In this document: in pieces, positions 11,857 through 53,796 of the stretch
Layout: each line of letters starts with the position of its first letter
Position numbering within the stretch: position 1 is the first letter of the stretch
Origin: a virus
Length of the DNA: 64,000 bases
IMG/VR virus record: IMGVR_UViG_3300021964_000013
Direction: 5' to 3' (one strand)
Notes under the pieces: generated by a model
Databases searched by the model: none
Told to the model about the DNA's origin: nothing
Seen by the model: only the letters and a program-made list of their open reading frames with translations
Position numbers and translations under genes: made by a program

Positions 11857-11887
11857 TTTGGATATCATGATTTTTTTATTATCTTTG
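11857..11887 (+). promoter_or_regulatory. Bacteroidota primary-sigma promoter (-33 TTTG / -7 TAnnTTTG)
   Basis: TTTG 11857-60, 19-nt spacer, TATCTTTG 11880-87. Confidence 0.8.
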
Positions 11888-17221: not shown

Positions 17222-17252
17222 TTTGTGATATCATAAAAAATACTTACATTTG
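17222..17252 (+). promoter_or_regulatory. Bacteroidota primary-sigma promoter
   Basis: TTTG-N19-TACATTTG. Confidence 0.8.
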
Positions 17253-19041: not shown

Positions 19042-19071
19042 TTTGATATAATAAATTCTTTCTTATCTTTG
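19042..19071 (+). promoter_or_regulatory. Bacteroidota primary-sigma promoter
   Basis: TTTG-N18-TATCTTTG. Confidence 0.75.
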
Positions 19072-20607: not shown

Positions 20608-20638
20608 TTTGTATATTCAAACAAAATCATTAAATTTG
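20608..20638 (+). promoter_or_regulatory. Bacteroidota primary-sigma promoter
   Basis: TTTG-N19-TAAATTTG. Confidence 0.75.
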
Positions 20639-22680: not shown

Positions 22681-23640
22681 ATGATAAGAACAGCAGAATG
22701 TGTATCTCCTATGCATCCCGATAAGATGTGTGATAGGATCTCAGATACACTATTAGATTTACACTTACAACAAGATGAGAACTCAAGATGTGCCATTGAA
22801 ACATGTGGTGGTATTGGACAAGTGTTCATTACGGGTGAGGTAACATCTAATGCATTGGTAAATGATGCAATGATTAAGAAGGTGGTGAAAGACATCACTA
22901 AGGATCCCGATATTCAGGTGACCATAAATTTGAATCAACAATCCCCTGAGATTGCGCAAGGTGTTGATATAGGAGGTGCTGGTGATCAAGGTATTATGAT
23001 TGGGTTTGCGTGTGAAGATAACGAGGAGTACCTTCCACAAGAATATTATTTGGCACGAGAACTCAATAAACACATCTATAGAACATATCCCTTCGATGGA
23101 AAGACCCAAATCACCTTAAATGGAAGTAAGGTTAGGGTGGTTTGTTCATTCCAAAACGCACCAAAAGAGATGTTGGAAGGTATGGTCACAGGATGGTTTA
23201 GGAGATATCCTGAGTACATCATAGAATCTCTGCATTGTAACCCCGCAGGTGATTGGAACATTGGTGGGTTTACTGCGGATGCAGGACTAACAGGTAGAAA
23301 ACTTGCGGTCGATAACTATGGACCAAGAGTTCCGATTGGCGGTGGCGCCTTTAGTGGTAAAGATTCGACTAAGGTTGATAGATCCGCGGCGTACATGGCA
23401 AGAAAGATTGCTGTTGACTACTGTAAACTATATGGTGGTGACACCTATGTTACTTTGGCATATGCTATTGGATACGACCAACCACTACAGGCAACTGTTG
23501 TGTGTGGGGATCACGTCATGGAGATAGAGGGTTACGACCTATCTCCTCAAGGTATCATAAAATTCCTTGACTTAAAGAAACCGATCTTCGGAAAGACCGC
23601 TGAATTTGGTCACATGGGATGTGGTTTTAATTGGGAATAG
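22681..23640 (+). CDS. metK: S-adenosylmethionine synthetase
   Basis: HPDK, GAGDQG, DAGLTGRK and GGGAFSGKD..KVDRS motifs. Confidence 0.95.
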   Translation: MIRTAECVSPMHPDKMCDRISDTLLDLHLQQDENSRCAIETCGGIGQVFITGEVTSNALVNDAMIKKVVKDITKDPDIQVTINLNQQSPEIAQGVDIGGAGDQGIMIGFACEDNEEYLPQEYYLARELNKHIYRTYPFDGKTQITLNGSKVRVVCSFQNAPKEMLEGMVTGWFRRYPEYIIESLHCNPAGDWNIGGFTADAGLTGRKLAVDNYGPRVPIGGGAFSGKDSTKVDRSAAYMARKIAVDYCKLYGGDTYVTLAYAIGYDQPLQATVVCGDHVMEIEGYDLSPQGIIKFLDLKKPIFGKTAEFGHMGCGFNWE

Positions 23641-27229: not shown

Positions 27230-28090
27230 TTGAGACAACTCAAAATTCAACAGCAGATTACGGTCCGAGAATCGAAATCTGTTACTTCCTATTTCAACGA
27301 TATCAACAAAGAGCCAATGGTTGAGCCAGACGAAGAGTCTGATTTAGCTATTAAAATTCAGCAAGGCGATAAAGCAGCTCTTCAAAGACTTATAAAAGCA
27401 AACCTCAGATTCGTAGTATCAGTTGCAAAGCAATACCAAAACAAAGGCTTAAATCTTGAAGACTTGATTAGTGAGGGTAATATAGGTTTAGTTAAAGCAG
27501 CAGAACGTTTTGATCACACTAAAGGCTTTAAGTTTATATCTTACGCAGTGTGGTGGATTAGACAATCTATAATGCACGCGCTTGGTGAATATAGTAGGCA
27601 AATACGTCTACCACAAAATCAAATAGGTCTGCTACGTAAAATCAATAGTGAAGTTATAGAGTTTATGCAACTCTATGATAGAGAGCCAACACCACACGAG
27701 TTGTCAGAAAAAATAGGCGAACCTATAGATAAAATCGAGTTTCTACTAAACAGTAATTTCAACGCTTCTAGCCTAGATGCTCCTTTAAGTAATGGTAGTA
27801 GTGATGATTTTAGTATGCACAATATACTTTCGTCAACCATAGAAACAGATAAGGAAGTGATGAGGCAGTCTTTATCCACTGATATCAACAAGATATTAGA
27901 CGAGTTACCTGAAAGACAGGCTTATATACTGAAGCGTACGTTTGGCATAGGTTGTGCTCACGCAGAAACTCTAGATGAGATAGGCGAAGAGCTAGGCATA
28001 AGCAGAGAACGTGTTCGTCAGATCAAAGACACAACAATTAGAAAAATAAAAGGCAAAGGTTGGGATAAAATTTTAATAGAATACTTATGA
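27230..28090 (+). CDS. RNA polymerase sigma factor, Bacteroidota RpoD/SigA-like (TTG start)
   Basis: MRQLKI, ANLRFVVSVAKQYQ, DLISEGNIGL..AAERFD.TKGFKFISYAVWWIRQSI, SRERVRQI. Confidence 0.95.
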   Translation: MRQLKIQQQITVRESKSVTSYFNDINKEPMVEPDEESDLAIKIQQGDKAALQRLIKANLRFVVSVAKQYQNKGLNLEDLISEGNIGLVKAAERFDHTKGFKFISYAVWWIRQSIMHALGEYSRQIRLPQNQIGLLRKINSEVIEFMQLYDREPTPHELSEKIGEPIDKIEFLLNSNFNASSLDAPLSNGSSDDFSMHNILSSTIETDKEVMRQSLSTDINKILDELPERQAYILKRTFGIGCAHAETLDEIGEELGISRERVRQIKDTTIRKIKGKGWDKILIEYL

Positions 28091-29168: not shown

Positions 29169-29215
29169 TGTGACAATAGGGTGTTAATAGTAACTAGTAG
29201 GGGGCTAATGTCACA
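29169..29215. promoter_or_regulatory. Inverted repeat overlapping the HTH gene start (operator- or origin-like)
   Basis: TGTGACAATAG-N25-CTAATGTCACA, one mismatch. Confidence 0.5.
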
Positions 29216-29825
29216 TTCCAGATTGGATAGGCTTAATAGAATGAAGGTCGTATATCGTAAAGACCCTCACTCAGATAAACCAACAGAGGTTTACTGGTGG
29301 GGTAAGTTTTATGAATATGGTACACACCAATGCTTCGATCTATTTCGTAGTAAGGCTAAAATAACTACGTATAAGTCTTTAAAATGGCACAGCATCGTAC
29401 TTCGTTATCTTAATCAAGAGATGTCTGAAGATAATTTTAAGGATGTTTTATTTTACGTAGGTAATCCTTTAAATGATTTCATTACATTTGAGATAAGCGA
29501 GAATATTGTAAATGAGTTAATTACGGACTTACGTGGTTACGATTTAAGAATAGCACCAAAAAACAAATCAAGGAAAATTATATTTAATGACGGTGTCCCG
29601 CTTAGCATTAGTGAAAAGCTGAAAATCGTAGGTAGCTTAATCGGTAGAGGTAAACGCTTTACTGAAGAAGACATCTACGAGTCGATGCTATACATCCATG
29701 CTAACGGCGACAAAATTACGGTGAGAAAGATCGCGAGTACACTTGGTTGCTCAGATAGGACGATACATCGTAATATGAGTGATCAATTGAAAAATGAAAA
29801 AGATTTACTCAATGCGTCATTATGA
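29208..29825 (+). CDS. C-terminal HTH DNA-binding protein
   Basis: 'KITVRKIASTLGCSDRTIHRN'; start reassigned to ATG 29208. Confidence 0.7.
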   Translation: MSHSRLDRLNRMKVVYRKDPHSDKPTEVYWWGKFYEYGTHQCFDLFRSKAKITTYKSLKWHSIVLRYLNQEMSEDNFKDVLFYVGNPLNDFITFEISENIVNELITDLRGYDLRIAPKNKSRKIIFNDGVPLSISEKLKIVGSLIGRGKRFTEEDIYESMLYIHANGDKITVRKIASTLGCSDRTIHRNMSDQLKNEKDLLNASL

Positions 29826-30580
29826 AAAAATACAACCCGCGTACTTACTCCTCTTATAAAGAGAGTGTAAACGCAGCTAAAGCTAGGATAAGAAAAGAAA
29901 CACTAGCTAACTTAAACAGAGATGAAGTAATCACGATGTACCTACCTCTAGTCGAAAATCTCGCCAGAAAGTTCTCAACAAGCCAGCAAGCAAGCGGCGT
30001 GATGAGTCTAAATGATATGATACAAGAAGGTTCTATCGGCCTTATAATGTCATATGATACTATCAAGTGGGACAAGATTAAAGAAAGCCCAGATCCAGAA
30101 CGTACAATAAGATCTTTCTTTTCCAAAAGAATAAAAGGCGCGATTCGCAGAGCGATAGATAAAAACAGAGGTGATATACGTATACCAGAACATAAGCTAA
30201 ACGAGATTCGTAAAGACAACGGAAAAGACAAAAAGCTTATGCAGATGTTCTTTAACAGTATATTCTTGTCTATAGATGAGAAAGTAGAAAACGATGAAGA
30301 ATATGCACATCAAGTAATTGACACATCTAAGCCGTATACAATAAATAAGATAAACGACTACCTCATGGATCTCATGTCTAGAGTATTAGAAGAAAGAGAG
30401 TATGAGGTAATAAGGTTGTCTTACGGTTTAGACTGCGATAAGCATTCTGCAAAACAAATAGCTGAGATCGTCGGCATTAACGTTGATACCGCGCACGTAC
30501 GTGTGTCTCAGATTAAACGTAACGCACTGGAAAAATTAATGCAACGCGTAGATCGAAACATGTTATTGGAGTTCATGTAA
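29822..30580 (+). CDS. Divergent sigma-70 family factor
   Basis: YLPLVENLARKF, DMIQEG.IGL, IRIPEH and a region-4 'RVSQIK..AL.KL'. Confidence 0.85.
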   Translation: MKKYNPRTYSSYKESVNAAKARIRKETLANLNRDEVITMYLPLVENLARKFSTSQQASGVMSLNDMIQEGSIGLIMSYDTIKWDKIKESPDPERTIRSFFSKRIKGAIRRAIDKNRGDIRIPEHKLNEIRKDNGKDKKLMQMFFNSIFLSIDEKVENDEEYAHQVIDTSKPYTINKINDYLMDLMSRVLEEREYEVIRLSYGLDCDKHSAKQIAEIVGINVDTAHVRVSQIKRNALEKLMQRVDRNMLLEFM

Positions 30581-37549: not shown

Positions 37550-37593
37550 AAAAGTGGTATGTGCAGATTTTGCATGTACCACTTTTTATTTTT
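37550..37593. terminator. Hairpin/terminator where the early (+) and late (-) arms converge
   Basis: AAAAGTGGTA...TACCACTTTT stem followed by a T-tract. Confidence 0.6.
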
Positions 37594-38149
37594 CAGTGGC
37601 ATACTTAACACCCATTATGGTTCCAACTATACTAAACGAATTAGTTAGCAGTATACCAAACAGATTAGACCAAGTACTTTCTATTATCTTAGAATCATAA
37701 CCCTGGTACAAGACAAACATATATAACAAAGATGTTATAACACCTACGCCCACAATAACTCCTAATGCAAGCTTAACAATAATACCTACTAACTCAAACT
37801 GAGTTTTCTTTTGCATGACCTCTAAGTCATTTAGAGCCTCATCTCTTAAACTTTCAGCTGCTTTTTTAGCATCTTCAAGTTCTTCCATCTTATCCTGTAG
37901 ATCTGATAAGAGAGCTTTATTTAATACGTTAGCTTCTTCAAGCTCTTTGTTCTGAGCCTGTACCTGCTTAGTAATGTCTAAACGCTTACGTCTTTGAGCT
38001 AAGTCTTTTCTTTTACACTCTTCAATGTAGTCTTTAACTTCATCATCAGTAGTCTTAGCCAGCAGCTTAACAAAGTTTCCTTCTATGAAAACTTTCTTAG
38101 ACTTGGCTTTAAGTATAGCTTCCTTTACCGTGTCTTTAGAACTAATCAC
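37586..38149 (-). CDS. Coiled-coil protein with two C-terminal TM helices
   Basis: Long charged heptad region, then two hydrophobic helices. GTG start at 38149 overlaps the upstream stop (alternative start 38167). Confidence 0.75.
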   Translation of the reverse strand: MISSKDTVKEAILKAKSKKVFIEGNFVKLLAKTTDDEVKDYIEECKRKDLAQRRKRLDITKQVQAQNKELEEANVLNKALLSDLQDKMEELEDAKKAAESLRDEALNDLEVMQKKTQFELVGIIVKLALGVIVGVGVITSLLYMFVLYQGYDSKIIESTWSNLFGILLTNSFSIVGTIMGVKYATEK

Positions 38150-38312
38150 CGCAGCAGTGTATTTCACAACTATCCAAGTAGGTATTATCAGGATTACCGT
38201 TAGTTACATATCCTGTTTCATACTCTTTAGTATTACTATTAACTAAAAAACCAGCTAAACCTACAAGCAAGAAGAATATAATAGCAACCCTAAATTCTAT
38301 AATCAGTTTCAT
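38142..38312 (-). CDS. Exported or membrane-anchored micropeptide (56 aa; not in ORF track)
   Basis: MKLIIEFRVAIIFFLLVGLAGFLVNSNTKEYETGYVTNGNPDNTYLDSCEIHCCGD; TAATG overlap with the receiver gene. Confidence 0.7.
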   Translation of the reverse strand: MKLIIEFRVAIIFFLLVGLAGFLVNSNTKEYETGYVTNGNPDNTYLDSCEIHCCGD

Positions 38313-38749
38313 TATCTATATACCTTAAAAGAATTTGTTTTATTTACATAGCCTTCGTAATCCTTATGAAACTCCTCAAGTCTTGGTTCAATATCATCAG
38401 ACTTGATAATCCAGAACTGAGCCCCTACTTCTTTAGCTTTTTGTATTTCCTCTTCATCAGAGCTGCTAGATATAATGCCAATAACACAGCCGTTACCATA
38501 GTCCTGGTTGATCTTACGTATCATTTCAATGCCATCAAAGCTTGATCCAATGATATTAAGATCTACAAAAACACACTGTGGTCTTTCGTGATCTGGATCA
38601 TCTGGAAACCATGCTTTAAATTTTCTGTCAGCTTCGTCTGAGCTGTCTAATGACTCTATAGAGAGCGCTATATCTAACATGCTACAGGCATCTTCAAATA
38701 CCAGGTGAAATAGATTCTCATCATCTATTAGCATCAATGTGTCGATCAT
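38312..38749 (-). CDS. Single-domain response regulator (receiver)
   Basis: LIDD acidic pair, VFVDLNI phospho-Asp, ISSS and IIKS conserved Lys. Confidence 0.9.
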   Translation of the reverse strand: MIDTLMLIDDENLFHLVFEDACSMLDIALSIESLDSSDEADRKFKAWFPDDPDHERPQCVFVDLNIIGSSFDGIEMIRKINQDYGNGCVIGIISSSSDEEEIQKAKEVGAQFWIIKSDDIEPRLEEFHKDYEGYVNKTNSFKVYR

Positions 38750-39645
38750 ATCTTTATGTATACTTTTGTACCGTTATCTTGTTTCTCAGCAAACACACTG
38801 AAGCCGTGTTCTTTTAATATTTCAATAGATATATTAAGTCCAAGCCCTGTGCCACTTTCTTTTTGTCCTTCTTTTCTAGCATAAGGTTTACTAAGTTCAA
38901 TAAACTCTTCACCTCTTAACCCTCTACCATTATCCTCTACTACAATGTAAGAACCACCGTGGTAGCTTGCTTGTAGATATATTTTTATCCACTTAGTAGC
39001 AGAGTCGTTATATTTTAAACCGTTTCTAATAAAATTATCTATAGCAGTACAAAATAAAGCTTCATTAACATCCAGACCAATAGGTAAATCACCTGATAAT
39101 AAAACCTGATTTTTATAAGCCGTAAGCTTTAGATAGTCTTCTAGTATAAACTTTATATTACAGGTTTTTTTGTTTAACTGAGCATTCTCTTTAACTAGAT
39201 TAGTGAATTCATAGACACCAGCATAAACTTTTTGCGCGTGATACAAGCCATCTTCGATTAGCTTTAATGGAGAGGCTATTCTAAGCTCTTTAACGATGTC
39301 TTCGTTGAGTCTACGGTTCAAAGACTTGATACCTCTAGGTAAATAAGTATTGATACCGCTATGCATGTCATGTCTAATGATCTTAGCAGCGTGTTCTAAG
39401 TAAATGTTTTTCTTGCTAAGATCTTGTTTGATAGATTCTTTATTAGCTAGAAACTCTTTTACTACTAAAAAGAAAGGTGGCATAAAGGCAATAACCGATA
39501 GCCACTCAAAGTAATGTGTAAATGTAGAATGATGTATGTATTTAAAAACTACTAAAGTTTTAAACACAAAAAACGTAAGCATTATTACTGTAGAGCACAA
39601 CAAGCATATCCTAGAACGTATAGATATACCATCAAGTACGGACAT
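38746..39645 (-). CDS. Sensor histidine kinase (two TM helices)
   Basis: H-box RHDMHS, N-box NFIRNGLKY, G1 EDNGRG and G2 GTGLGL. Confidence 0.93.
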   Translation of the reverse strand: MSVLDGISIRSRICLLCSTVIMLTFFVFKTLVVFKYIHHSTFTHYFEWLSVIAFMPPFFLVVKEFLANKESIKQDLSKKNIYLEHAAKIIRHDMHSGINTYLPRGIKSLNRRLNEDIVKELRIASPLKLIEDGLYHAQKVYAGVYEFTNLVKENAQLNKKTCNIKFILEDYLKLTAYKNQVLLSGDLPIGLDVNEALFCTAIDNFIRNGLKYNDSATKWIKIYLQASYHGGSYIVVEDNGRGLRGEEFIELSKPYARKEGQKESGTGLGLNISIEILKEHGFSVFAEKQDNGTKVYIKI

Positions 39646-39804: not shown

Positions 39805-42800
39805 TTATCTTTTTCTAGATCTTGATCTACTTCTAGATCTCGATCTTGTTCTTGATTTAGTTTCTTTTGTATCAACACCTATCTGGTAATCAGGCCAGCC
39901 TAGGAACATTAATATCTGCTCATATGTTTTAAACTCACCTTCAAGATCTACAGAGTTAAGTATATTTTCATACTTCTGCATAAGCCTGTCTAGTGGCACA
40001 TTCGATGCTACCGATGTACCAACAGCCATAGCTTTTAAGAAGTTTGTGTCACTAAGCATTTCTAAAGTACCCAAGTTTTCTTTAGATTTTTGTAAGTAAT
40101 AACCAACACTCTTAATCTTGTTCAGCTTCGAACCAATAGATGGCGCTATATTAGCTGCTTCAAACGCTAGCATTTCAAAGTCAGGGTTAGGTCTGCCAGA
40201 TCTCTCTACAAACTCAACGCCTACATTTTTAATTACAGACATAATGTGACCTCTAATACCAGCACCGCGTAAAAATGAATCAAGCATACCATTAACTAGC
40301 TTGAACTCATCAGATTTAACCAATCTCTCTTCGTCATCGTCAGAAAAACCAATAAGTGTGCCTAATAAAGCGCTCTGTAAAGACACGAACAAAGCGTGTT
40401 GCGCCATACCGTAGTAAGCTATTCTAGACATTGAAACAGCAGCACTACCTCTTTTGTTCTTTAAGTTACTAAGCTCTTTCTTGATTATCCTGTCATACTG
40501 GGACTGAGTGTTAGCAAACGTCAATAGAAGTCTACCACCAAGGCTAGCTTGCTGAGCGCTAATTCTGTCAGGTCTAGACGACTGTTGTGATTCTTCTGTT
40601 TTATTTCTAAAATCAATAAACGCTCTTGCTTCAGCTTCTTCTTGTGTTAAACCTTGCTTTAAATACTCGTTAACATAGTTTCTGTAGTAAGGAGCACCAC
40701 CCATTACAATAGCTAAGCTATCCGCGATTTGTGTTGGCATAAAGCCTTTTGATAGTAACCAACCTACGGCCGCTTTAAACTTGTTTGTAGCATTTTTAGT
40801 TGCATCAACGAGTTCAGCTTCATTGATGTCGATTTTAAGACCCTCACGACGCTCTCTCATGTAGTTGGAGTTGACCAATGTCATTACATCAGACCAGAAC
40901 TGCTTTTGATTAGCGTACGCTGTGCCTGCTTTCAGCACGTTGTTAGGACCAGCGGCTTCAATATAGTTTGTAAACGAGATTAACTGCAATACAGCTGATC
41001 TAGTGTTAGCAAACATAACAACACCAACAGAACCATTTAACCAGTTCATGATGTTATTAGTAAACTGTGAGTCACCTGTTTCTAACCTGTTTCTACCCGT
41101 TTTCATTCTGGTGATTATGTTATCAAGAGACTTGATATAATCCTCACCAAATGCTGCTCTCATTTTGTTTTTATTCTTCTCGTTAAAGATAAAATCAACG
41201 TTTCTATTCCACTCTTCTAAGTATTTCTTTCTACTGTTCTTTTTCAAAGAGTCGATGATGTCACCTATAATACCACCAGAGTTCCAGTTTTTACCAGGTT
41301 CTACGTGACCGTGAAGATCAGTAATTTTCATTATCTCAATAGCGGCTTCTCTAGCCATACCATCTTTAACGACAAATGCTTGAGCTTGCTTTATTTCGTT
41401 TTCAGATATACCAGATATGTCATAACCTTTTCTACTCCATATGTATATTCTGATAGCGTTTTCAACACTCATACCAGGGAAAGCATCAGCTTTTAACTGC
41501 TTAAACAAGGGCTTAAACGTCTTCTTGATATCACGGTACTGCCTGATCATTCTAACTCTTTCAGCTGAGTAGTTGTTCACACCTTCATAGTAAGGCTCTA
41601 ACAAGTACTCTTCAAAGAAAGATATATGCTTTTGTGATTGATCACCTTTACCAACGAGATAGTTTTCTATAAGACCTCTGTAATCGTCGTGTGACGGTGG
41701 TACAAAGAATACATTTTTATTCTTATCTCTACCCAGTTGTTTCGATGCTACCTCAGAGAATTCTGTTTTAGCGTTTAAACCAGTAACATCTTCAAGTATA
41801 CTGTTAAACTCAGCATCTAGATCAGCAGCAAGCCTATTCAACCTTTCTTCCTCTTCTGCTTTAGCTATCTTTTCGGGATCTTGGCTGATAGTCCCTGTCT
41901 CTTCTATTTCCTCCTTTAGATTCTCTAAGAATTTCTTTACCTCTTGTTCCTTGTCTTTTAGAGATTTTTTATCTTGGTTAGACATGTCATCTTTAGAAAA
42001 ATTACCAAGATTATCTATTAAGTTCTGTATGTTTCTACCAACACTTCTGTTGTAGTCTAAAGAAACTAAAGCAGAGTGATCTATAGTTACTGCGTCTCCG
42101 TTTTCTTTGTAAATCTCAATGTTATTAGAACCTTGTTTACCTACCGGTACTCTAGATATTCTAGACAAGAAGGTAGGCTCTACGTTGTTTCTAAAATGAG
42201 GCATAACAACACCTTGTTTAGCCAAGAGTTTTTTAGCGTACGCTTTAGAGACTTGTACGGTTACGAAGTCATCTAGTATATCTATAGACGAGTTGTCTTT
42301 TCTAGGGTTTGTTACAACGTTGGCTAAATAACCAGATAAATACTTAGTTGGTATAGAATACATCAACGACTTAGGTGTTGATTTTTCAAGTACCATGTTT
42401 ACCCCAAACCTAGAAGCTTTACCTATAATAGGGTTTTTAGCTTCAAATACTGTATCGAATATAAAAGCAACTTCTTCTCTAGTTAAATTACCATTAGCAT
42501 AAAGTGCTTTTACTTTATAGAAGCTGTCTTTTAGTTTGTTTTTTAAAGTCAAAGGATCTAAGCTCACACTTTCGTTAAGAACACTTAACACGTCGTTATC
42601 AAAAACCTTTTCAAGAACGTTGACTTTAGCTTCGTTAGATATAGTGTTTTCACTGACGTTTAGCAAGCTCTTATGTCCTTCGTTTAAAACAGTGTTTTGA
42701 GCTATGTTAAACAAGTTATCAGCAAGAGAATCAGTGAACTCTGCTTCAACAGCTTTATGTGTTCTTAATCTAACAGTATCGATGTTTCTAGCGATATTAG

Positions 42801-45800
42801 CAAAGTCTAAAGCTAATTGTCTAGAAAGAACAACAGCGCTAGCCTCGTTCAACCATGGGTATTCTTTAGCAAAAGTATTTACAAGGTTGTTTGTCAATGC
42901 TATTCTAAGCTGACCCAATTGCTTATCACGCATCATGTTAGGCATGAGCTTGTAAGGAGCAATGCCATCTTTAAATGCTTTAAGTAAAGGATCTGGGTTT
43001 TGCATGATTAGCTCAGCCATACGTAAACCACCCATTCCAGCGTCTAAAGCGTTAGCACTAAACTTCATTAATGGGTCACGTTCAATTAAGTATGCTACCC
43101 TACCTATAACTTGGTTTTCTTCAACCACATCAGCGTTTTTCTCAATCATGCGCTCGTACATGTCGATGACTCTACCCTCAACAGGGTTGCCTTCTAAATC
43201 GTAGAACTGCTGGTTAGGGTTTTGCATAACTTCAAGAGTAGCATCGAGACCAAGGTCTATAGACATAGCTTCAGCTAAAACTCTTTTATGCTCATGTGGC
43301 ATGTTTCTACTTCTACCGACACGTGTTGGGTCTAAGTAGTTTAACCACTCTTCTTTTGTTGGGTAACGTCTTTGTACTTTGTTTACACCTGAGTAAGCGT
43401 CTCTAATGCCTAACATCCTAGACTCTTCAGCTGTGTAGCGTATTACATTGCCCTTAGCGTCTTTTTGGAACTCATATAAAACTCCGTTTAATGCAGGGAA
43501 TTTTCTAAGTGTGTTAAGGCTTAATTCTTCTTGAATCCAACCTTGGTTCTTAGAAGCCCACTCAATAAACTTAGCTGATCGTGTTGGGAACTTTTCAAGC
43601 ATGGTCTTGTATATAAGACCCTTGTATGCTTCAAACAAGTACGACCTAAACAAGCTTGGTTTCCATTTTTTAGTAGACATCAAATCAGGAGACAAGCTCA
43701 GCGTTCTAGTAACGACGCCCCTGATCTTGTTCATCTCTTGTGGTTCTAAACCTAACTTTCTTCTAATTCTACTGAACTCACCTAGTGAAGCTGGTTTATC
43801 AATAGCTTCTTCTATACTTTGCTCGTCACTTACAGATGGACCACCACCAGCGAGATCATCAACGTTAGTATTGAAGGTTTCACCTAGGTATTTGTTTTTT
43901 ATAGAAGCAGCTCTTAAAGCAAAGTACTTGTTGATATAAGCAGCTAATGGCACTCCTTTATCAGGGTTGTAACTCATTACTATACCGACCAATCCCTCTA
44001 CATCCTGTATAGCCGCGTCTTCTATTAAGTCTTTATCGAGTTGCCACCCAGGTAACGTGTCCCAGTTACCACGTATGGCTATTTTACGAAACATAGGTCT
44101 ATACATTTCACCTATTTCGTATACCGCAGCTACACCTTGCTCATCCCATAATCTCTGAACCTCAGCGCTCATTTCTTGCTGAGCTTTAGTAGGGCCTCTT
44201 TTTTTATCTTCAAACTCGTTTGCGGAGTCCATGTCTTCAGCAGCTAGCCAACCCTTAGAGTTTTTATCTACTTGAAGTAAAACACCTTTGCCACCGTACT
44301 CAGCAAACTGTCTCTGTGCTTTAGTTGACTTTCCTTTTACAATAGAATTATTGTAGTCCCTGACAAAGTTAAACACATCTTTACCGGTGTTAAACTCAAT
44401 GTTCTTGAGACCCAAGTCCTGCATTATTCTTCTTATAAAGTCTCCTATTTTCTCAAAGAAACTCTGGTCGTAAGTAACTCTTCCAGTTAACAAAGAATCA
44501 GATAGTACAGTGATAAACTCTTCTAAGTTTCTAGGATCAAAAGTTACGTCAGACATAGAAGCTAGCTTGTTAAACTGTTCTATGTTTTTGTTTGCTTTTT
44601 TAAATAACTCTTCTGCAGTGTACTTTTTGCCTAGTAAAGTATATGTTTGGTAAACTCTCATCCTAGACCTCCAGTTGTCTAGGTCTTTTATTTTTCCAGA
44701 ATCTTCTAGTTCTAGCAAATAATTGTTTAAAGCACCTACTGTTTGTTTTAAAGCGTCTGTATTGATCTTACTTTTACCATCTTTTAGTGCCGTAAAAGTA
44801 TTGTGCAAAACAGCATGTAAGACCTCATGGCTACCAGTTGTAACGTTTCCAGAAGCTATAGAGCCTTGCGCGTTGACAATGATTTTACCTTTAGTTGTAA
44901 ATACACCTGGTTTTCTTTTTAACTCGCCTTCAACGTAGTCTAGTTCTTCTTTAGTCGGGTTGTTTATACCTCTATCTTTTAAAACCTCAACAGCGTATTG
45001 TCTAGTGTTTTCAGCAACAACAACATTATCACCAACAATTTCTAGATCAGCAAAAGCTTTTACCGCGTTGTTCAGGTTAGCATTGAACTCTTCCATAGAG
45101 ACTAGTTCAAAGTTCGCGTCAACAACTTGAGATTTTAAAGTGTTTGATTTTTTAACTAAATCGCTTTTGTTGTGGTTTAAATCGATGTTCTTTATTTCAG
45201 CGGCGTGTTGCTCTTCGGTTATAGAACCCTCTTTCAACTGAGTGTTTAACACATCGATTTGCTGCTTTCTTATAGACTCTAGGTCTTTTACTTTTTTACC
45301 ATCCTCAGAGCTTTGGAAATCAGATAGCTTTTTTTCAGCGTCGTTCTTATTGTACTCAGCATCCATTAACTTCGACTTCTGATCGCTACTCATTGACCTG
45401 TCAAAGTTCTGAGAGCTCATCATGAAATTATCGAGCTGCTGCTTTTTTTCCTCGTATGCTTCTTTTGTTATAACACCGTCTTGAAGGTCCTTGTTTAATC
45501 TAGCAATATTGTGTTGATGAAACTCTCTTAGACCTTTTATATCTAGTTTTCCAGCAGCTACAGCATAAGCATTTGAAGCTTCAGTTATCGTAGATGACGT
45601 TACATTACCGCTAAATGGTAATAACGAACCCATGATAAACCCAGCTCCACCACCTTGTATGTAGTTTTCTCTAATATATTCACCTACTGTTACGTCACTA
45701 GCAGCTTGTTGAAACACCTCAGTCATCATCTCGTCAAAACCACCTCTTACAGATGTTAATCCGTTTTTAGACTGTTGCTTTAACCAGTGTTTAAATTGTC

Positions 45801-47380: not shown

Positions 47381-48820
47381 TTATTGTACAGGACCCAGAC
47401 TACCAGGTGTGGATTGCGGACCTACGTTTATTACAGGTAAAACCGGTTTGTTCTTTTCAACATTCATTATAGCAGCGTCAGTTGTGGCATCGTTACCAAA
47501 CTTACTCTGTATAATAGCTGATGTTAGATCTTTTTGAGTAGACTCATCGTATGGGTCTACAACATAGTAGTCCTTATCGGTTATAATTAACATGTCACCA
47601 GGAGAGTACTCTGACTCTAGAAAATCATTTATATCACTTTTAGAGTAACCTATCTTAGATAATGCATCTACAGCTGAAGCTCCACCGCCGCCGCCTATAT
47701 AAGTAGCATTTAAAACGGTTTCATTAACGTATTTAGCACCTATCAAAGGTTTAGTATCGCCATCCATTATCTTACCCATGTACTCTCTACCTAAATCAGA
47801 GCGATCTTTAGCGTCTACTTGCCTAAGCTCTGCGGCTGTCATATTAGAAGCCGTTGTTAATCCAGCTGCTTTTTGCTTTTCAGCTAAACTTATTGATCGG
47901 CTTATTGACCTAGAGTCTGCTCTATTTTCTTTAGATATTACCGCTTGGTAACCAGACTGTGCTGATTCTCTCAACACATTCATATAGCTATTAATAACAA
48001 ACTGTTCTAGTTCTTCTTGTCTTTCTGGGTTTTCAAGTAAGTCAATATCTTGAACACCAAGTCCACCAGGTATAATATGGTCGTCAGTAGCCATAGATAA
48101 AACAGCATCTCTTCCTCCTTTTTTAATTTGTTGTTGAAGCTGCATTCTAACCATCTGCTCTCTACCTTTATCCATAGGAGCACCTGACTGGTACAATTGA
48201 TCACTTAAGTTTAGTATCTTGGTAGCTGTCTCGTGGTCTTTGTAATGGTACTTTGGCACATCATCTAGTGTAGCACCTTCACCATATACTAACCTACCTG
48301 TTTCACCAATACCAAAAGGCACTTGATCTGTAGTTATGTTAGCTATAAAGTCGATGTCTTCTGGCTTGTTACCATTAGATATCATACCATTATCAAAGTC
48401 CTCTATAGCTTGGTACTTTAACTCTTTTAATCTTTCAAAATCAGCATTAAGATTAGAAAAAGACTGAGTTATAGAGTTCATTTTATCAACAGCCTCCATG
48501 TATATAGGAGAATCTGGGCTATTGCCAGAAGCTAGCTTTGCGTTTTCAAAGAATTCATTGCGTGCGTTGATCAACCACTTGTTCACGTCACCACGCATAG
48601 ACTGAGGCACCTTTTCGATATCCACGTTAGCGGGCATGTTATCGATGTAAGACCCCATTTTAGCTTCAGCCTGTTTCTTAAGCTGCCTACGGTAGTTCAT
48701 TTCAACATCAGCTTCTTGGCTAGCTTGCATTACTGCAGCTGCGCCAGAACCCTGTGTTGGTTGACCTACATAACTTCTAGCTGCGTATCCAGCTCCTTTT
48801 ATTAAATTCGCGTCTGCCAT
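47381..48820 (-). CDS. Putative internal virion protein
   Basis: Synteny and helical composition. Confidence 0.55.
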   Translation of the reverse strand: MADANLIKGAGYAARSYVGQPTQGSGAAAVMQASQEADVEMNYRRQLKKQAEAKMGSYIDNMPANVDIEKVPQSMRGDVNKWLINARNEFFENAKLASGNSPDSPIYMEAVDKMNSITQSFSNLNADFERLKELKYQAIEDFDNGMISNGNKPEDIDFIANITTDQVPFGIGETGRLVYGEGATLDDVPKYHYKDHETATKILNLSDQLYQSGAPMDKGREQMVRMQLQQQIKKGGRDAVLSMATDDHIIPGGLGVQDIDLLENPERQEELEQFVINSYMNVLRESAQSGYQAVISKENRADSRSISRSISLAEKQKAAGLTTASNMTAAELRQVDAKDRSDLGREYMGKIMDGDTKPLIGAKYVNETVLNATYIGGGGGASAVDALSKIGYSKSDINDFLESEYSPGDMLIITDKDYYVVDPYDESTQKDLTSAIIQSKFGNDATTDAAIMNVEKNKPVLPVINVGPQSTPGSLGPVQ

Positions 48821-48829
48821 TTCTAAAAA

Positions 48830-49483
48830 TTATTGGTCAATACCAAATATAGAGTTAGTTAAAGGTCCTCTACCATCTGTTTTAGTAACGTAATCACGGT
48901 AAGCCCCAATACCAGCGCTTCCCAGTTGTCCTAGACCTTGGAAAACTTGGTTTGTAGCTTGATCTCTAGCTGCTCTAGATTCACCAAGTGCTTGCTGCGC
49001 CATACCGAGCTCTGTACCAGCTTGCTCTCTCTGCATTTGCTGAGACAAGTAGTCGCCTTTACGCTCCATGCTCTGTATACTCATAGCACCTTGAGCGGCA
49101 GCTTGTTGGTTAGCGGCCTCTTGGTTACCAATACGAGCGCCAGCTTGTAAAGCATTTTGGGACTGTTGGTTAGCCATAGCTTGAGCTAGTGAAGCAATAC
49201 CGCTACCACCAGCCGCACCTGAAAGTTGGTTCATAGTGTTAGCCATGCCCTGCTGTTGCTGCTGAGCGATGAAATCAGCTTCTTGCTGATTAACAGTGAG
49301 ATCCTCCATGGGGTTCTCCATGTTCGCGTACGGATTTGTAGTATCAAGGTTTTGATAGTTAGCCATCGTGCGGTTGAAATCAGACTGAGCTTGTTTCATC
49401 TCTGATCTTCTTCTTTTTCTACCGTACAGTGTCTGACCTATGTTTAATAACCCAGCCGCCGCTAAATATGCTGGTATTGCCAT
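48830..49483 (-). CDS. Putative ejection/pilot protein
   Basis: Gln/Ala/Gly-rich helical protein with a hydrophobic N-terminus, typical of podovirus ejection proteins. Confidence 0.6.
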   Translation of the reverse strand: MAIPAYLAAAGLLNIGQTLYGRKRRRSEMKQAQSDFNRTMANYQNLDTTNPYANMENPMEDLTVNQQEADFIAQQQQQGMANTMNQLSGAAGGSGIASLAQAMANQQSQNALQAGARIGNQEAANQQAAAQGAMSIQSMERKGDYLSQQMQREQAGTELGMAQQALGESRAARDQATNQVFQGLGQLGSAGIGAYRDYVTKTDGRGPLTNSIFGIDQ

Positions 49484-49515: not shown

Positions 49516-52500
49516 TTAGCTACTGACAAATATTTCAGAGTTAACTGCGAATAGTTCTTTATTAGTTCCCGTTGTGTTAGTCATTTTAACCGATGCGTAG
49601 TAGCCAACTAATCCAGAAGTGTTGATCTGACTGTTTTTAGCAAAGAACACGAAATCACCATCTTCTATGCTAGTACCACCATTATCATAGTCTATACCTT
49701 CCGTGTTGTTCACGTCTACATAGTACTGTCCACCTGTAGCTCCAGTATCAGCACACGTACCTATCTTGTAAATATTACCATTTGATTTCTGGTAAAAAAC
49801 AATATCATCAGCCGCTTCTTGTAAAGATACATTTATCTCGTTATTAAATATTAGCCTCATTGTAGGTGTAACTGTACCTACTATATCTAAGGTATCTATA
49901 CCTTGAACTGAAAACTCACTTGTATCTAAAGAACCAGACTGGGTGTTGTTGTCCCAAGCATCTTGTCTACCTCTAATATAATTATAATATATTCCCTCTT
50001 TGTTTTTCCAAGTAACTACTTCACCGTCTTGCTGATCAGTATCTACAGTAGCCGTCCAGCCAGAATCACCCTCGTAAGAAAGCGTCTTAAAGTTCTTGAT
50101 TCTAGAAGCCTCATCGTTATGTAGTAGAGTTACTGATGTGTCGTACTGAATACCGTAGTAGTTAGCTCTAGTATTGTTAGTGTGAGCGTATATATTACCG
50201 TTTTTAAAAGTATAGTACACTGAGTTAAGCGAAACACCTGTCTCAGGTACAAAGCTTAATCTAGTCGACCAACCATCTACGCTTTCTTTAAAAGCTAATG
50301 TCTCGCCGTTAACAGTTACATTGTAAGACGACATGTCTTCGTTAAAAGAACCGTGTATCGCGCCAGAGTGTGCTGTTAGAGCGTCTGTAATAAAGTCTGA
50401 CATACCTTTAGATGCTACATCAGTGATACCGTCTCTAGACAGTCTTATAACAGCTCTTCTAGATTTGTCTACGAAGTATGCTCTAAAACCAAAGCTTACA
50501 AAAGACTCTGGATTCTTAGATATACCATACTCACCAACATAAGGAGTCGATTGACCCAATACCCTATTTGTAGATACAAGGTTAGCATTACCATCCGCAT
50601 TGTAAAGCGCATCTTTATTAGCGAGTACTCTAAATACTTTATCCTCACAAAGAACAATAAGATCAGTGTCTCTAGCGTGAAGTTTTTGTATTGTACCATA
50701 TATTGGGTTGAGGTCTTTTGTTATTTTCTCCGCGGTGTTAAACTGGTTAAGGTTGTTCACTCCAGATGTGGAGTTGAATATACCACTGTAAATCATACCG
50801 TGGCCTCTTCTCTCTTGAGAGTAAACCTCTTCAATGGTACTAGAAGCTTTAACACCTTTACCCATTGTCTTGGCGTTGAAGTCGTCTCTAATTCTATTAG
50901 ATTCAACACCGTTGCCAAAAGAGTACACATTGAAGTAATCTAACACTTGCTCTGTTTGCAACTGAGCGATTGGTATTGCTTCTGTAGCTTCGAAGAATAT
51001 ATCTAGATCAATAGCCTCGTTTGGTTCAACTTCAAAAACAGTAGGGTTAGGAGAACTAAGTGTAATAGTGTTCTCATCAAAAACTATAGGTAATAACCTT
51101 TTTCTTTTAGATATCCTTACAGCATCAGCTGTAAAGTCCTCATCAGTAAAAGGTGTAGTCATTTTTATGTTCCAGTAGTAACCTGTTTCATCGTCAGTGT
51201 CTCCAGAAGACAATGGTTGCCTGTCGTAACTACCTTTTGTAACAGTGTCTACAATATATAGTGAGCTCCAAGAGTTATCAGTGCTATTTTGGAACTGAAT
51301 CACATCACCACTGCTAATAGCCGCATCGAATGCATTACCGTTAGTGCCAAAGTCTATATTATTGCTGTCGTATGGTGCAAAGTAGAAACCAAACAAGTCA
51401 GAACCAATTGTTGGCTGACCATGTGAGTCGATGCTTGGTTGAGCGTTAGCGTGTTCTTCCCAAGCAAACATATCTAGAGTAGCAGGTGGCGTGTCGGTAG
51501 CGTCTGGATCATCAGACAGTGTGTTCTGTATATAAGGAACTCTCTTTAAACCGTCTTGCTCATAATCACTAGGGTCATTTGTAAAGTTGTATATAACACT
51601 TTCTTCAAATAGAACATCTCTGTTGATCTTAACAAAGAATCTTCCCTGGTATTCTTTTCTAGCTTCTTTTTCTTTTTTGTATACCTCTACAGTGAAATTA
51701 TCAGAGCTAGAAAGACTTTGTATAAAACCAACATCAGTTAGTTTTTCTTTTGTTGTTATCTCGTAGCAATCATGTGAATCACCAGTATAACCACCTCTTT
51801 CTATCTCGTAAAACTGGCTAACATTGGTACCTCTTCTAAATCTTATGTAAGAATCGTAATCAAAGGACTCAAAGAACTCTGGATTTTCAGCTGATGTTGG
51901 TCCTTCAAACTTGAACGTCTTTAAGTTGTTAGCGACTGGAGTATCAGAACCTTTAACCACTTCTGAGCCCGTGTTGTAGACTCTTTTTATAGAAACAGCA
52001 TCTGGTACTTCATTCTGTATATCTAAGATCTTGTATCTAGAAGGCGATATAACAGGCTCATCTGAGTTGTGTTTTTTCTTAAGTGTAAGGAAGTCTCCCT
52101 CCTGCACTTTATTACGCTCAGCACTTGGCATAGACAACCAAACAGTACCGTCTGAATCATCAGCATAGTACCTATCAAGTACGATGTTGTAGTATTCATT
52201 AGATATGTCCTTAACGTAGTATTTAAAATGCGTTGCCCAAGAAGGAGCGTCTTGACCAGACTCAGCTTTTATTCTATTAACCTTGCTTGATTTGTCTATG
52301 TCTACTTTTATAGTAGAGTAGTCATTCGTAAAAACAGGTGTTTCTCTACCGTTAGTATCTAAATAAACAATACCTATTTGGTAGTTTCTCAAAGATTTTA
52401 CACTTGACTCAGGTGTTTTAACACTTGTTATAGAGTTAGACTGTAAGCTAACTGTAATATCAGCTTCATCAGTGATGTTGTAACCCTGAACGTAGTTACC

Positions 52501-53796
52501 ATACACAAGCCTATTACCTATAACCTCTTGAGATTTAGCTTTTAACGGAACGTTGTCATATGCTCTTAGTAACTGGCTAGATTCCACTAGGTTACTAATC
52601 AGCTCTGATGTTATAGAGTAATTTGTTCTTGTAGTAGGTATAGACTCAACCTTGTACACGTTGGGTGATGAAGAGTCTTTATATAAAATATCTATATACT
52701 CTACGTCGGCTGGTGGTGTTTCAAACCCGCTTATGGTCAATCGCCTTAGGTTGTTTATCATGCCGGTATTATACGCGTTCATAGATATATACCTAAAATC
52801 ACCGGGTACAAAAACAGCATTAGTCCAAGGTGAAAAACCAGAGACTTCGCCATCAACATATCTCCATCTGTAAGCAAATCTAGGAAAAGACAATTCAAAC
52901 ATTGGTCTTTCTTCTTCAAGAATACACTTCCATGTGTACTCTATAGATTTTATATCAGACGATATAGACTGTATAGTACCAGTAACAAACCTTAGTAAAG
53001 CACCAGTTATAGAAACAACTTCTATTCTAACCTGGTACTCATCTTCGTAGTTGTTATCGTTTATCTCACTAGCTGTCAGTACGATGATATCACCAGCGTT
53101 CCAGTTAGGAGAATCACTTACAGTAAAAGATATAGAGCTACCTACTTCTCTAGGCACTTTGCTGCCGCCATAAAGCTCTGTAAAGTCTTGTTGAGTGGTT
53201 ACGTAGTTCAAGCCAGAACCAACACCAGATCTAGTAGTTGAAGAAGCCACATAGTGTGGCCTTTCGTTTGGTTTTTTCTTTATAACAGTAATATCTGAAG
53301 CTATAAAGTCTCTACCATATACAGTCGTTTGGTCTTGACCAGTTTGGTTTGTACCGGACTTAAATCTTGATATTAGTATTTTTCTAGGCTCATTAAGATC
53401 ATCTGTCCACATGAGCATACCATCGAACACGTTTACGCCAGTGATTAAGTTGCCGATGCTGAAGTTTAATACACTGTTGTAATCCACTATAACAAAAGAT
53501 ACAACCTCGTTTGACTCATTGTACTCTAAAACAAAGTCACCTTCGTCTGCGGTTACAAACCAATATATCTTATTATTCTGTGTGTCTTTTACATTACCAA
53601 TGCAGGTAGCGTTTGTAAAGTTAAACGAAGACTTAGCTGTGTTGCCAAGTACACTTTCTATTGCTCCTACATCAGAACCCTCAGAGTTACTAACCTGTAC
53701 GTTCAGTGCATCTCTGTACTGACCGTTAGGCACAAGCCTCTCATCAAGGTCTTTATTCATTTTACCTGATGTGAAAACGCGCTTTAATTCTGGCAT
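49516..53796 (-). CDS. Tail nozzle/stabilisation protein
   Basis: N-terminal 'GKMNKDLDERL.PNGQYRDALN', beta-rich sequence, 'YGISKNPES'. Confidence 0.75.
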   Translation of the reverse strand: MPELKRVFTSGKMNKDLDERLVPNGQYRDALNVQVSNSEGSDVGAIESVLGNTAKSSFNFTNATCIGNVKDTQNNKIYWFVTADEGDFVLEYNESNEVVSFVIVDYNSVLNFSIGNLITGVNVFDGMLMWTDDLNEPRKILISRFKSGTNQTGQDQTTVYGRDFIASDITVIKKKPNERPHYVASSTTRSGVGSGLNYVTTQQDFTELYGGSKVPREVGSSISFTVSDSPNWNAGDIIVLTASEINDNNYEDEYQVRIEVVSITGALLRFVTGTIQSISSDIKSIEYTWKCILEEERPMFELSFPRFAYRWRYVDGEVSGFSPWTNAVFVPGDFRYISMNAYNTGMINNLRRLTISGFETPPADVEYIDILYKDSSSPNVYKVESIPTTRTNYSITSELISNLVESSQLLRAYDNVPLKAKSQEVIGNRLVYGNYVQGYNITDEADITVSLQSNSITSVKTPESSVKSLRNYQIGIVYLDTNGRETPVFTNDYSTIKVDIDKSSKVNRIKAESGQDAPSWATHFKYYVKDISNEYYNIVLDRYYADDSDGTVWLSMPSAERNKVQEGDFLTLKKKHNSDEPVISPSRYKILDIQNEVPDAVSIKRVYNTGSEVVKGSDTPVANNLKTFKFEGPTSAENPEFFESFDYDSYIRFRRGTNVSQFYEIERGGYTGDSHDCYEITTKEKLTDVGFIQSLSSSDNFTVEVYKKEKEARKEYQGRFFVKINRDVLFEESVIYNFTNDPSDYEQDGLKRVPYIQNTLSDDPDATDTPPATLDMFAWEEHANAQPSIDSHGQPTIGSDLFGFYFAPYDSNNIDFGTNGNAFDAAISSGDVIQFQNSTDNSWSSLYIVDTVTKGSYDRQPLSSGDTDDETGYYWNIKMTTPFTDEDFTADAVRISKRKRLLPIVFDENTITLSSPNPTVFEVEPNEAIDLDIFFEATEAIPIAQLQTEQVLDYFNVYSFGNGVESNRIRDDFNAKTMGKGVKASSTIEEVYSQERRGHGMIYSGIFNSTSGVNNLNQFNTAEKITKDLNPIYGTIQKLHARDTDLIVLCEDKVFRVLANKDALYNADGNANLVSTNRVLGQSTPYVGEYGISKNPESFVSFGFRAYFVDKSRRAVIRLSRDGITDVASKGMSDFITDALTAHSGAIHGSFNEDMSSYNVTVNGETLAFKESVDGWSTRLSFVPETGVSLNSVYYTFKNGNIYAHTNNTRANYYGIQYDTSVTLLHNDEASRIKNFKTLSYEGDSGWTATVDTDQQDGEVVTWKNKEGIYYNYIRGRQDAWDNNTQSGSLDTSEFSVQGIDTLDIVGTVTPTMRLIFNNEINVSLQEAADDIVFYQKSNGNIYKIGTCADTGATGGQYYVDVNNTEGIDYDNGGTSIEDGDFVFFAKNSQINTSGLVGYYASVKMTNTTGTNKELFAVNSEIFVSS

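Follow-up and report, generated by a model that had tools for sequence, protein, structure and literature searches.

The window analysed here, a stretch of 64,000 nucleotides recorded in IMG/VR as the virus IMGVR_UViG_3300021964_000013, carries on its minus strand a giant open reading frame (ORF), P0001 (39805-47364), that encodes a polyvalent-type putative virion cargo protein of 2519 amino acids (aa) and 285 kDa. Judged from sequence profiles and structure models, residues 1064-1165 of this protein (43870-44175, minus strand; equivalent to sigma regions 1.2 to 2.4) are very probably a real and very divergent sigma-2 domain. Our preferred reading, to which we give roughly an even chance, is that P0001 is a polyvalent cargo protein ejected by a marine podophage with a crassvirus-like tail and Flavobacteriia-type hosts, and that its sigma-2 module docks on host RNA polymerase. 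An earlier, sequence-only reading had placed a sigma-70 region-2-like domain at 43880-44170 (residues 1065-1162), an interval almost equal to the domain as delimited independently from conservation, AlphaFold2 modelling and structure searches.

The proposal of a sigma-2 domain was borne out by structure prediction, which returned this fold at high confidence with sigma factors matched in three structure searches. Given 40 family sequences as input, with neither templates nor sigma sequences among them, AlphaFold2 predicted residues 1059-1159 to form an all-helical domain with a predicted local distance difference test (pLDDT) score above 90, and the model contains the region 1.2 helix and the helices of regions 2.1-2.4 that make up the sigma-2 fold. 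Aligned with VIA-align to 48,161 PDB representatives, the model found T4 gp55 as its top match (7d7d_F, Z 7.8, root-mean-square deviation (rmsd) 3.0, 92 residues), followed by sigma28, a sigma70 fragment, ShbA, sigma32, pro-sigmaK, the SigE N-terminal domain, RpoS, SigR and SigC; of the first 26 rows, 20 are sigma factors (Z 5.6-7.8), as are 26 of 50. Foldseek against the PDB gave non-significant E-values, partly because the query carried a disordered tail, yet its first ~40 rows are sigma chains throughout, and the same program run against BFVD returned phage-encoded sigma factors. A fold search of the ESM Atlas with the sigma-like domain was uninformative.

The domain defines a protein family in its own right. 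Residues 1040-1400 used as query retrieved 39 homologues, every one of them giant (2071-3233 aa), at identities from 94% to about 25%. A profile run against 1.84 billion representative proteins matched 301 metagenomic clusters at E<=1e-3, 152 of them at E<=1e-30; the best 150 of the 301 are all members of the domain family, and among these nearly all are 1800-3200 aa long. In distant homologues, good alignment inside the protein is confined to residues ~1064-1195, making this the best-conserved internal module of the protein. Its most conserved part is the motif singled out by the sequence-only reading, GLVGIVMSYNPDKGVPLAAY (residues 1124-1143; 43936-43995, minus strand), which corresponds to the end of region 2.2 plus region 2.3, contains the family-invariant P-L-A-A-Y-I-N (PLAAYIN) and is placed by HMMER in register with SigE and FliA. 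That reading had been built on a gapless alignment of this motif to the phage sigma factor encoded at 27230. The 20-residue alignment exists and has six identities, but its score is not above chance: BLASTP of P0001 residues 1000-1350 against that sigma factor gives E=0.87 for the motif stretch, and 37 of 667,500 gapless 20-mer windows in the real pair score at least as high as the motif pair, compared with a mean of 47 when P0001 is shuffled. What raises the sigma likeness above chance is the conservation across the family together with the predicted fold, and not the pairwise match. The family consensus, ...FKPI..KIV.RR..APGFD..LLTDEIETG..GLL.LI..Y.PEKGVPLAAYINK.LP.RAI..., reads like sigma regions 2.1 to 2.3, and the N-terminal helix of the domain, S..VQ.IY.E.G, resembles region 1.2.

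Profile comparisons lead to the same family. When 52 diverse members were scanned singly against NCBIfam, 16 of the 20 families matched at E<=10 were sigma families (SigK, SigI, FliA/WhiG, SigE, ECF, RpoH, RpoS, sigma70 and sigma28 among the types), with a best E of 2e-4. The family profile run against the PDB found the SigE N-terminal domain as its best match (E 0.014, in register), with FliA at 0.19-0.95 and SigK also present, and hhalign against the second sigma factor of the phage and its relatives gave P=0.002 and 0.007 across 72 columns that span region 2. Alignments of the family profile to SigE and FliA provide the register in which individual residues can be compared with sigma70, in which the region 2.3 aromatics Y430, W433 and W434 serve to melt the -10 element. 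In this register, the helix 2.2 pattern D..E.G..GL (D403 ... G408 .. G411-L412) is kept, as are an aromatic residue at 419, a basic one at 423, G424, a hydrophobic one at 427 and an invariant tyrosine at the equivalent of Y430; a [YF]-x-P-x-x-G turn is likewise conserved in the domain family. Such a residue pattern fits a conserved protein-protein surface, perhaps with a capacity for base capture; promoter melting is not established by it.

Several observations weigh against the reading of this domain as a polymerase-docking sigma module. Pfam Sigma70_r2 is not matched by P0001 at E<=1 nor by 40 family members at E<=10, hhalign against a 28-sequence alignment of primary sigmas reaches only P=0.096, and the sequence matches to sigma factors, though mutually consistent, all lie below the usual thresholds. 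The VIA-align Z scores (5-8) are modest by the standards of helical domains, so that the argument for a sigma-2 fold rests on the make-up of the match lists and not on these values. The Trp-Trp pair of region 2.3 (W433, W434) is lost, its positions being taken by Lys and a variable Y/F/Q/N; many alternative sigmas also lack this pair. Regions 3 and 4, or another DNA-binding partner, were sought downstream of the domain by scanning the adjoining 276 residues of 40 members with Pfam. The scan gave only scattered unrelated matches, which do not converge on sigma or helix-turn-helix families, and is a weak control because Pfam missed the sigma-like domain too; these 276 residues are not confidently folded.

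Part of this evidence is what would be expected if the resemblance to sigma factors were due to chance, an unrelated helical domain having been placed near sigma-2 by AlphaFold2 and the aligners. The chance-level pairwise match and the negative Pfam result fit such an explanation, as do the uninformative ESM Atlas search and the fact that no single E-value passes a strict threshold. It would have to account, however, for the same family in the same register emerging from two PDB structure aligners, a viral structure library, NCBIfam, the PDB profile search and hhalign, and for the scattered, unrelated matches obtained when the neighbouring 276 residues of many members were scanned with Pfam, weak as that control is. 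We consider chance resemblance very unlikely.

A fold that is sigma-derived, or convergent with sigma, and makes no contact with RNA polymerase deserves more weight, and we regard it as possible if somewhat improbable. The domain would then be a helical scaffold or nucleic-acid-binding piece of a capsid-internal or ejectosome protein, serving for example to anchor the genome end or to arrange the cargo. This would suit the loss of the Trp-Trp pair and the failure to find a region 4, the far greater divergence of the domain among related phages compared with the C-terminal domain, and the basic tail and remainder of P0001, which point to a DNA-associated internal protein; helical bundles, moreover, easily reach middling Z scores. 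The most conserved residues, however, are not spread over the hydrophobic core but fall in the segments corresponding to helix 2.2 and region 2.3, which make polymerase and DNA contacts in sigma factors, and the structure match lists are dominated by sigma factors and not by generic bundles.

The sequence-only reading had also noted a zincin motif, HEVLH, upstream of the sigma-like domain in the same protein, and this is confirmed at residues 846-850 (44815-44829, minus strand). The motif lies within a zincin-like metallopeptidase domain (residues 716-1016; 44317-45219, minus strand) delimited from the invariant motif, AlphaFold2 and VIA-align, and the predicted third zinc ligand, E949 (44518-44520, minus strand), follows 99 residues past the second histidine, H850. 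Across a 90-sequence alignment, H846, E847, H850 and E949 are invariant and Y905 almost invariant. An HExxH motif precedes the sigma-like domain by 150-450 residues in 38 of the 39 first-round homologues and in 110 of 135 long members. The AlphaFold2 model of the zincin (pLDDT 91.5) shows a lethal factor/PPEP-like predicted fold: VIA-align lists anthrax lethal factor first (1yqy_A, Z 6.2), along with Certhrax, PPEP-2 (6fpc_A, Z 6.1, rmsd 4.3, 147 residues) and PPEP-3, and further matches include ArdC, an anti-restriction protein of plasmids, and a large number of other zincins. Foldseek with the zincin model gave no significant match.

The remainder of P0001 is less easily assigned. Homologues of the same length occur at 94% identity and the nearest viral record is 97% identical; tblastn against 50,697 phage records found no match, whether the query was the whole protein or the domain of a distant member. 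Pfam and PHROGs scans placed P0001 in no family, sigma and peptidase families included, P0001 and the family regions scanned gave no Pfam LPD match, the N-terminal regions of nine family members contain no Pfam domain, and a search of P0001 for hydrophobic or membrane segments found none. The most conserved part of the family is a C-terminal domain (residues 1836-2500; 39865-41859, minus strand), which matches distant homologues in phmmer at E 1e-115 to 1e-170 and has no match in a Pfam scan; an ESM feature search with it gave viral hypothetical proteins only, with LPD38/39 as weak leads, and the same search with the middle region of P0001 gave nothing. The protein ends in a basic Arg/Ser-repeat tail, (SR)n (residues 2501-2519; 39808-39864, minus strand). 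As the tails of distant homologues (P0006, P0010, P0013, P0024) differ in sequence but stay equally rich in Lys and Arg, they suggest a conserved function based on charge, such as contact with DNA in the capsid. The resulting order of modules, a lethal-factor-like zincin, the sigma-2 domain, a variable middle, the conserved C-terminal domain and the basic tail, appears conserved. Two family members, P0017 and P0020, have precomputed Pfam matches to zeta-toxin/CPT/AAA_33 P-loop kinase domains, which indicates that the variable parts of these giants can hold other effector modules.

The case for P0001 as virion cargo is built on its genomic position. The minus-strand block opens with terminase and portal genes and continues through genes of the PHROG category 'virion structural' to a crassvirus-type muzzle-like tail protein of 1426 aa (49516-53796, minus strand; Pfam crAss_MUZ_C, 7.3e-10, 39.6 bits, above cut-off; phrog_14478 virion structural protein, 9e-161), then to two genes encoding proteins of 217 and 479 aa (47381-49483, minus strand), and finally to P0001, which is separated from its upstream neighbour by a gap of 16 bp. 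The 217-aa and 479-aa proteins have no family matches in Pfam or PHROGs; by position they are equivalents of gp45 and gp46, two cargo proteins of crAss001. In that phage the muzzle gene for gp44 is followed by those for gp45, gp46 and then gp47 (2341 aa), and mass spectrometry found gp45, gp46, gp47, gp49 and gp50 in the virions (PMC10172136). The P0001 gene thus ends the structural operon, following the muzzle gene and the two genes in cargo position in the order seen in crAss001, and distant members of the P0001 family keep this neighbourhood. The same slot is occupied in Flavobacterium phage elemoF (Elemovirus) by a 3694-aa protein annotated 'structural protein' and in Maribacter phage Panino by an 1829-aa protein. 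The muzzle domain also links Flavobacteriia podophages, among which the portal relatives are Elemovirus, Cellulophaga phages and Maribacter phage Panino, to the crassvirus tail architecture.

P0001 has no sequence homology to crAss001 gp44-gp50 or to the Elemovirus 3694-aa and Panino 1829-aa proteins, and hidden Markov models of the P0001 family score negatively against crAss001 gp44-gp50. With no sequence shared between P0001 and these proteins, its packaging has to be inferred from position, size and architecture, and the evidence specific to packaging is synteny; these two points join those to be set against the reading of P0001 as an ejected protein. We nevertheless judge that P0001 is probably carried in the virion. 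A crassvirus-type virion RNA polymerase was considered as an identity for P0001 and rejected, the protein having no DxDxD motif and no homology to gp44-gp50.

Directly downstream of the P0001 gene lie genes for a histidine-kinase-type ATPase (299 aa) and a response-regulator receiver protein (145 aa; 37586-39645, minus strand), and no terminator was found between these and P0001. This arrangement in a late operon, together with the identity of the best structural match, T4 gp55, as a late sigma, could be explained if P0001 were an unpackaged, late intracellular polyprotein whose sigma-2 module acts late, in the manner of gp55 or as a regulator with the adjacent two-component genes. Such a late role seems to us unlikely: a mass of 285 kDa, a zincin, a basic tail and a place behind the muzzle and two further genes fit the crassvirus/Elemovirus cargo slot, and the later stages are already served by two free sigma genes. 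Further along, where the convergent plus- and minus-strand gene blocks meet, a hairpin (37550-37586) with a 17-bp stem and a T-run is likely a bidirectional terminator.

Five near-complete IMG/VR genomes that carry the second sigma gene were compared with the window. A giant ORF with the conserved C-terminal domain is present in all five (36-41% identity), and the zincin-like region was found in all three relatives looked at in detail. In one of them, G004, whose giant protein has 2625 aa, the zincin-like region is recognised at E 6e-11 and HExxH occurs nowhere in the protein; its peptidase may thus be inactive. The sigma-like domain is clear in two of the five relatives and diverged but recognisable in a third (hhalign P=0.0017, 79 columns). 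In the remaining two, G005 and G006, it was undetectable by hhalign and PDB searches, a further point to be counted against a docking module; in both, the expected position is occupied by a YDPS[KR]-type motif, which is not confirmed as a sigma-like domain. Given this gradation, the sigma-like module evolves much faster than the C-terminal domain, as a host-facing effector might, and it may be dispensable. In the 100%-complete genome G005 the giant gene is interrupted: a TAA separates the zincin-bearing part, in a frame of 1420 aa, from the C-terminal domain of 627 aa, and the two are in different frames.

The phage also encodes free sigma factors. The gene at 27230-28090 (plus strand) specifies P0002, a primary-type sigma factor of 286 aa in which Pfam recognises regions 1.2, 2, 3 and 4 and which is ~50% identical to the RpoD/SigA primary sigmas of Flavobacteriia and other Bacteroidota. 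A second, divergent sigma factor of 252 aa is encoded at 29822-30580 (plus strand; phrog_351, 2e-23; Pfam region 4 at 27 bits, above cut-off, and region 2 at 23.7 bits, just below it), and the two genes suggest a sigma cascade. Between them, a 214-aa protein (29181-29825, plus strand) with weak matches (2e-4) to a SpoIIID-like/HTH_11 helix-turn-helix at its C terminus may regulate transcription. The Bacteroidetes promoter consensus TTTG-N17-21-TAnnTTTG has six matches in the window compared with 2.5 expected, a number reached in 6 of 100 shuffles, and four of the matches stand directly upstream of plus-strand genes (11857-11887, 17222-17252, 19042-19071 and 20608-20638, plus strand). A host sigma factor could therefore start phage transcription with no delivered factor, and host-type promoter motifs combined with two free sigma genes mean that the phage need not rely on sigma delivery, both of which lower our confidence in the preferred reading. 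Also on the plus strand, at 22681-23640, is a phage-encoded S-adenosylmethionine synthetase with all three Pfam MetK domains.

On the reading of P0001 as an ejected cargo protein, we hypothesise that it would be packaged in the virion and enter the cell by ejection along with the DNA, where the sigma-2 module, possibly freed by the protein's own zincin, would dock on the beta-prime clamp helices of the host core RNA polymerase as region 2.2 does. The phage would in this way gain a hold on the polymerase before expressing any of its genes, and the module would either recruit polymerase to the incoming genome as a minimal sigma resembling T4 gp55 or displace the host sigma. The mechanism in its most specific form, in which a virion-borne factor consisting of sigma-2 only is cut out by the zincin and, within seconds, loads host core polymerase on the first promoters or strips it of host sigma, is a tentative proposal that we hold to be considerably less likely than not. 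Among podophages, N4 and crassviruses are known to eject giant proteins that contain RNA polymerases, and T4 Alt modifies host polymerase. The literature searched did not describe any sigma-type module for binding polymerase in virion or ejected phage proteins. If the proposal is true, it would add a third route by which phages start transcription, beside promoters read by host sigma and injected RNA polymerase. Binding to polymerase would give a large uncultured group of marine Bacteroidota phages (about 300 protein clusters) a simple mechanism for immediate takeover, minimal sigma-2-only factors like T4 gp55 would be more widespread than thought, and polyvalent cargo proteins would gain a new class of effector, which would aid the annotation of giant 'hypothetical' genes in viromes.

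Each part of P0001 can be set beside a known system. The zincin shares HExxH and a downstream Glu with the lethal factor/Pro-Pro endopeptidases of MEROPS M34, from which it is set apart by modest structural Z scores and a non-significant Foldseek result. In genome place, size and proposed role in early transcription, P0001 is like the crassvirus cargo proteins (crAss001 gp45, gp46, RNA-polymerase gp47, gp49 and gp50; phi14:2 gp66), whereas it shares neither sequence with gp44-gp50 nor the DxDxD of the RNA-polymerase cargo. As the phage of P0001 encodes sigma factors, it probably uses the host polymerase. As a giant multidomain phage protein with a zincin-like metallopeptidase, P0001 also falls among the polyvalent proteins (Iyer et al. 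2017), which are thought to be delivered with the DNA and whose metallopeptidases Iyer et al. linked to lethal-factor-like zincins, the same link as in P0001; 'jump-starting transcription' is among the themes named for zincin-bearing members, and the word 'sigma' has 0 occurrences in that paper (PMC5512222). The difference is that the transcription module of P0001, which has no detected Pfam LPD domain, would be a factor that binds a polymerase and not a polymerase itself. With sigma-70 region 2 (PF04542), especially that of group 3/4 factors (FliA/WhiG, SigK, SigE, SigI, ECF), the domain shares its predicted fold and weak, convergent matches in register; unlike these sigmas, it lies below the Pfam threshold, has no Trp-Trp pair and no region 3/4 that could be found, and is not free-standing. 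The closest structural counterpart is T4 gp55 (7d7d chain F), matched over 92 of ~100 residues with no detectable sequence similarity, which is a free protein of 185 aa made post-infection and working with gp33 and the sliding clamp gp45. It is a phage-borne minimal sigma with no region 4, as the domain described here may be, gp55 as a free-standing protein and the domain as a predicted module inside a 2519-aa putative virion protein.

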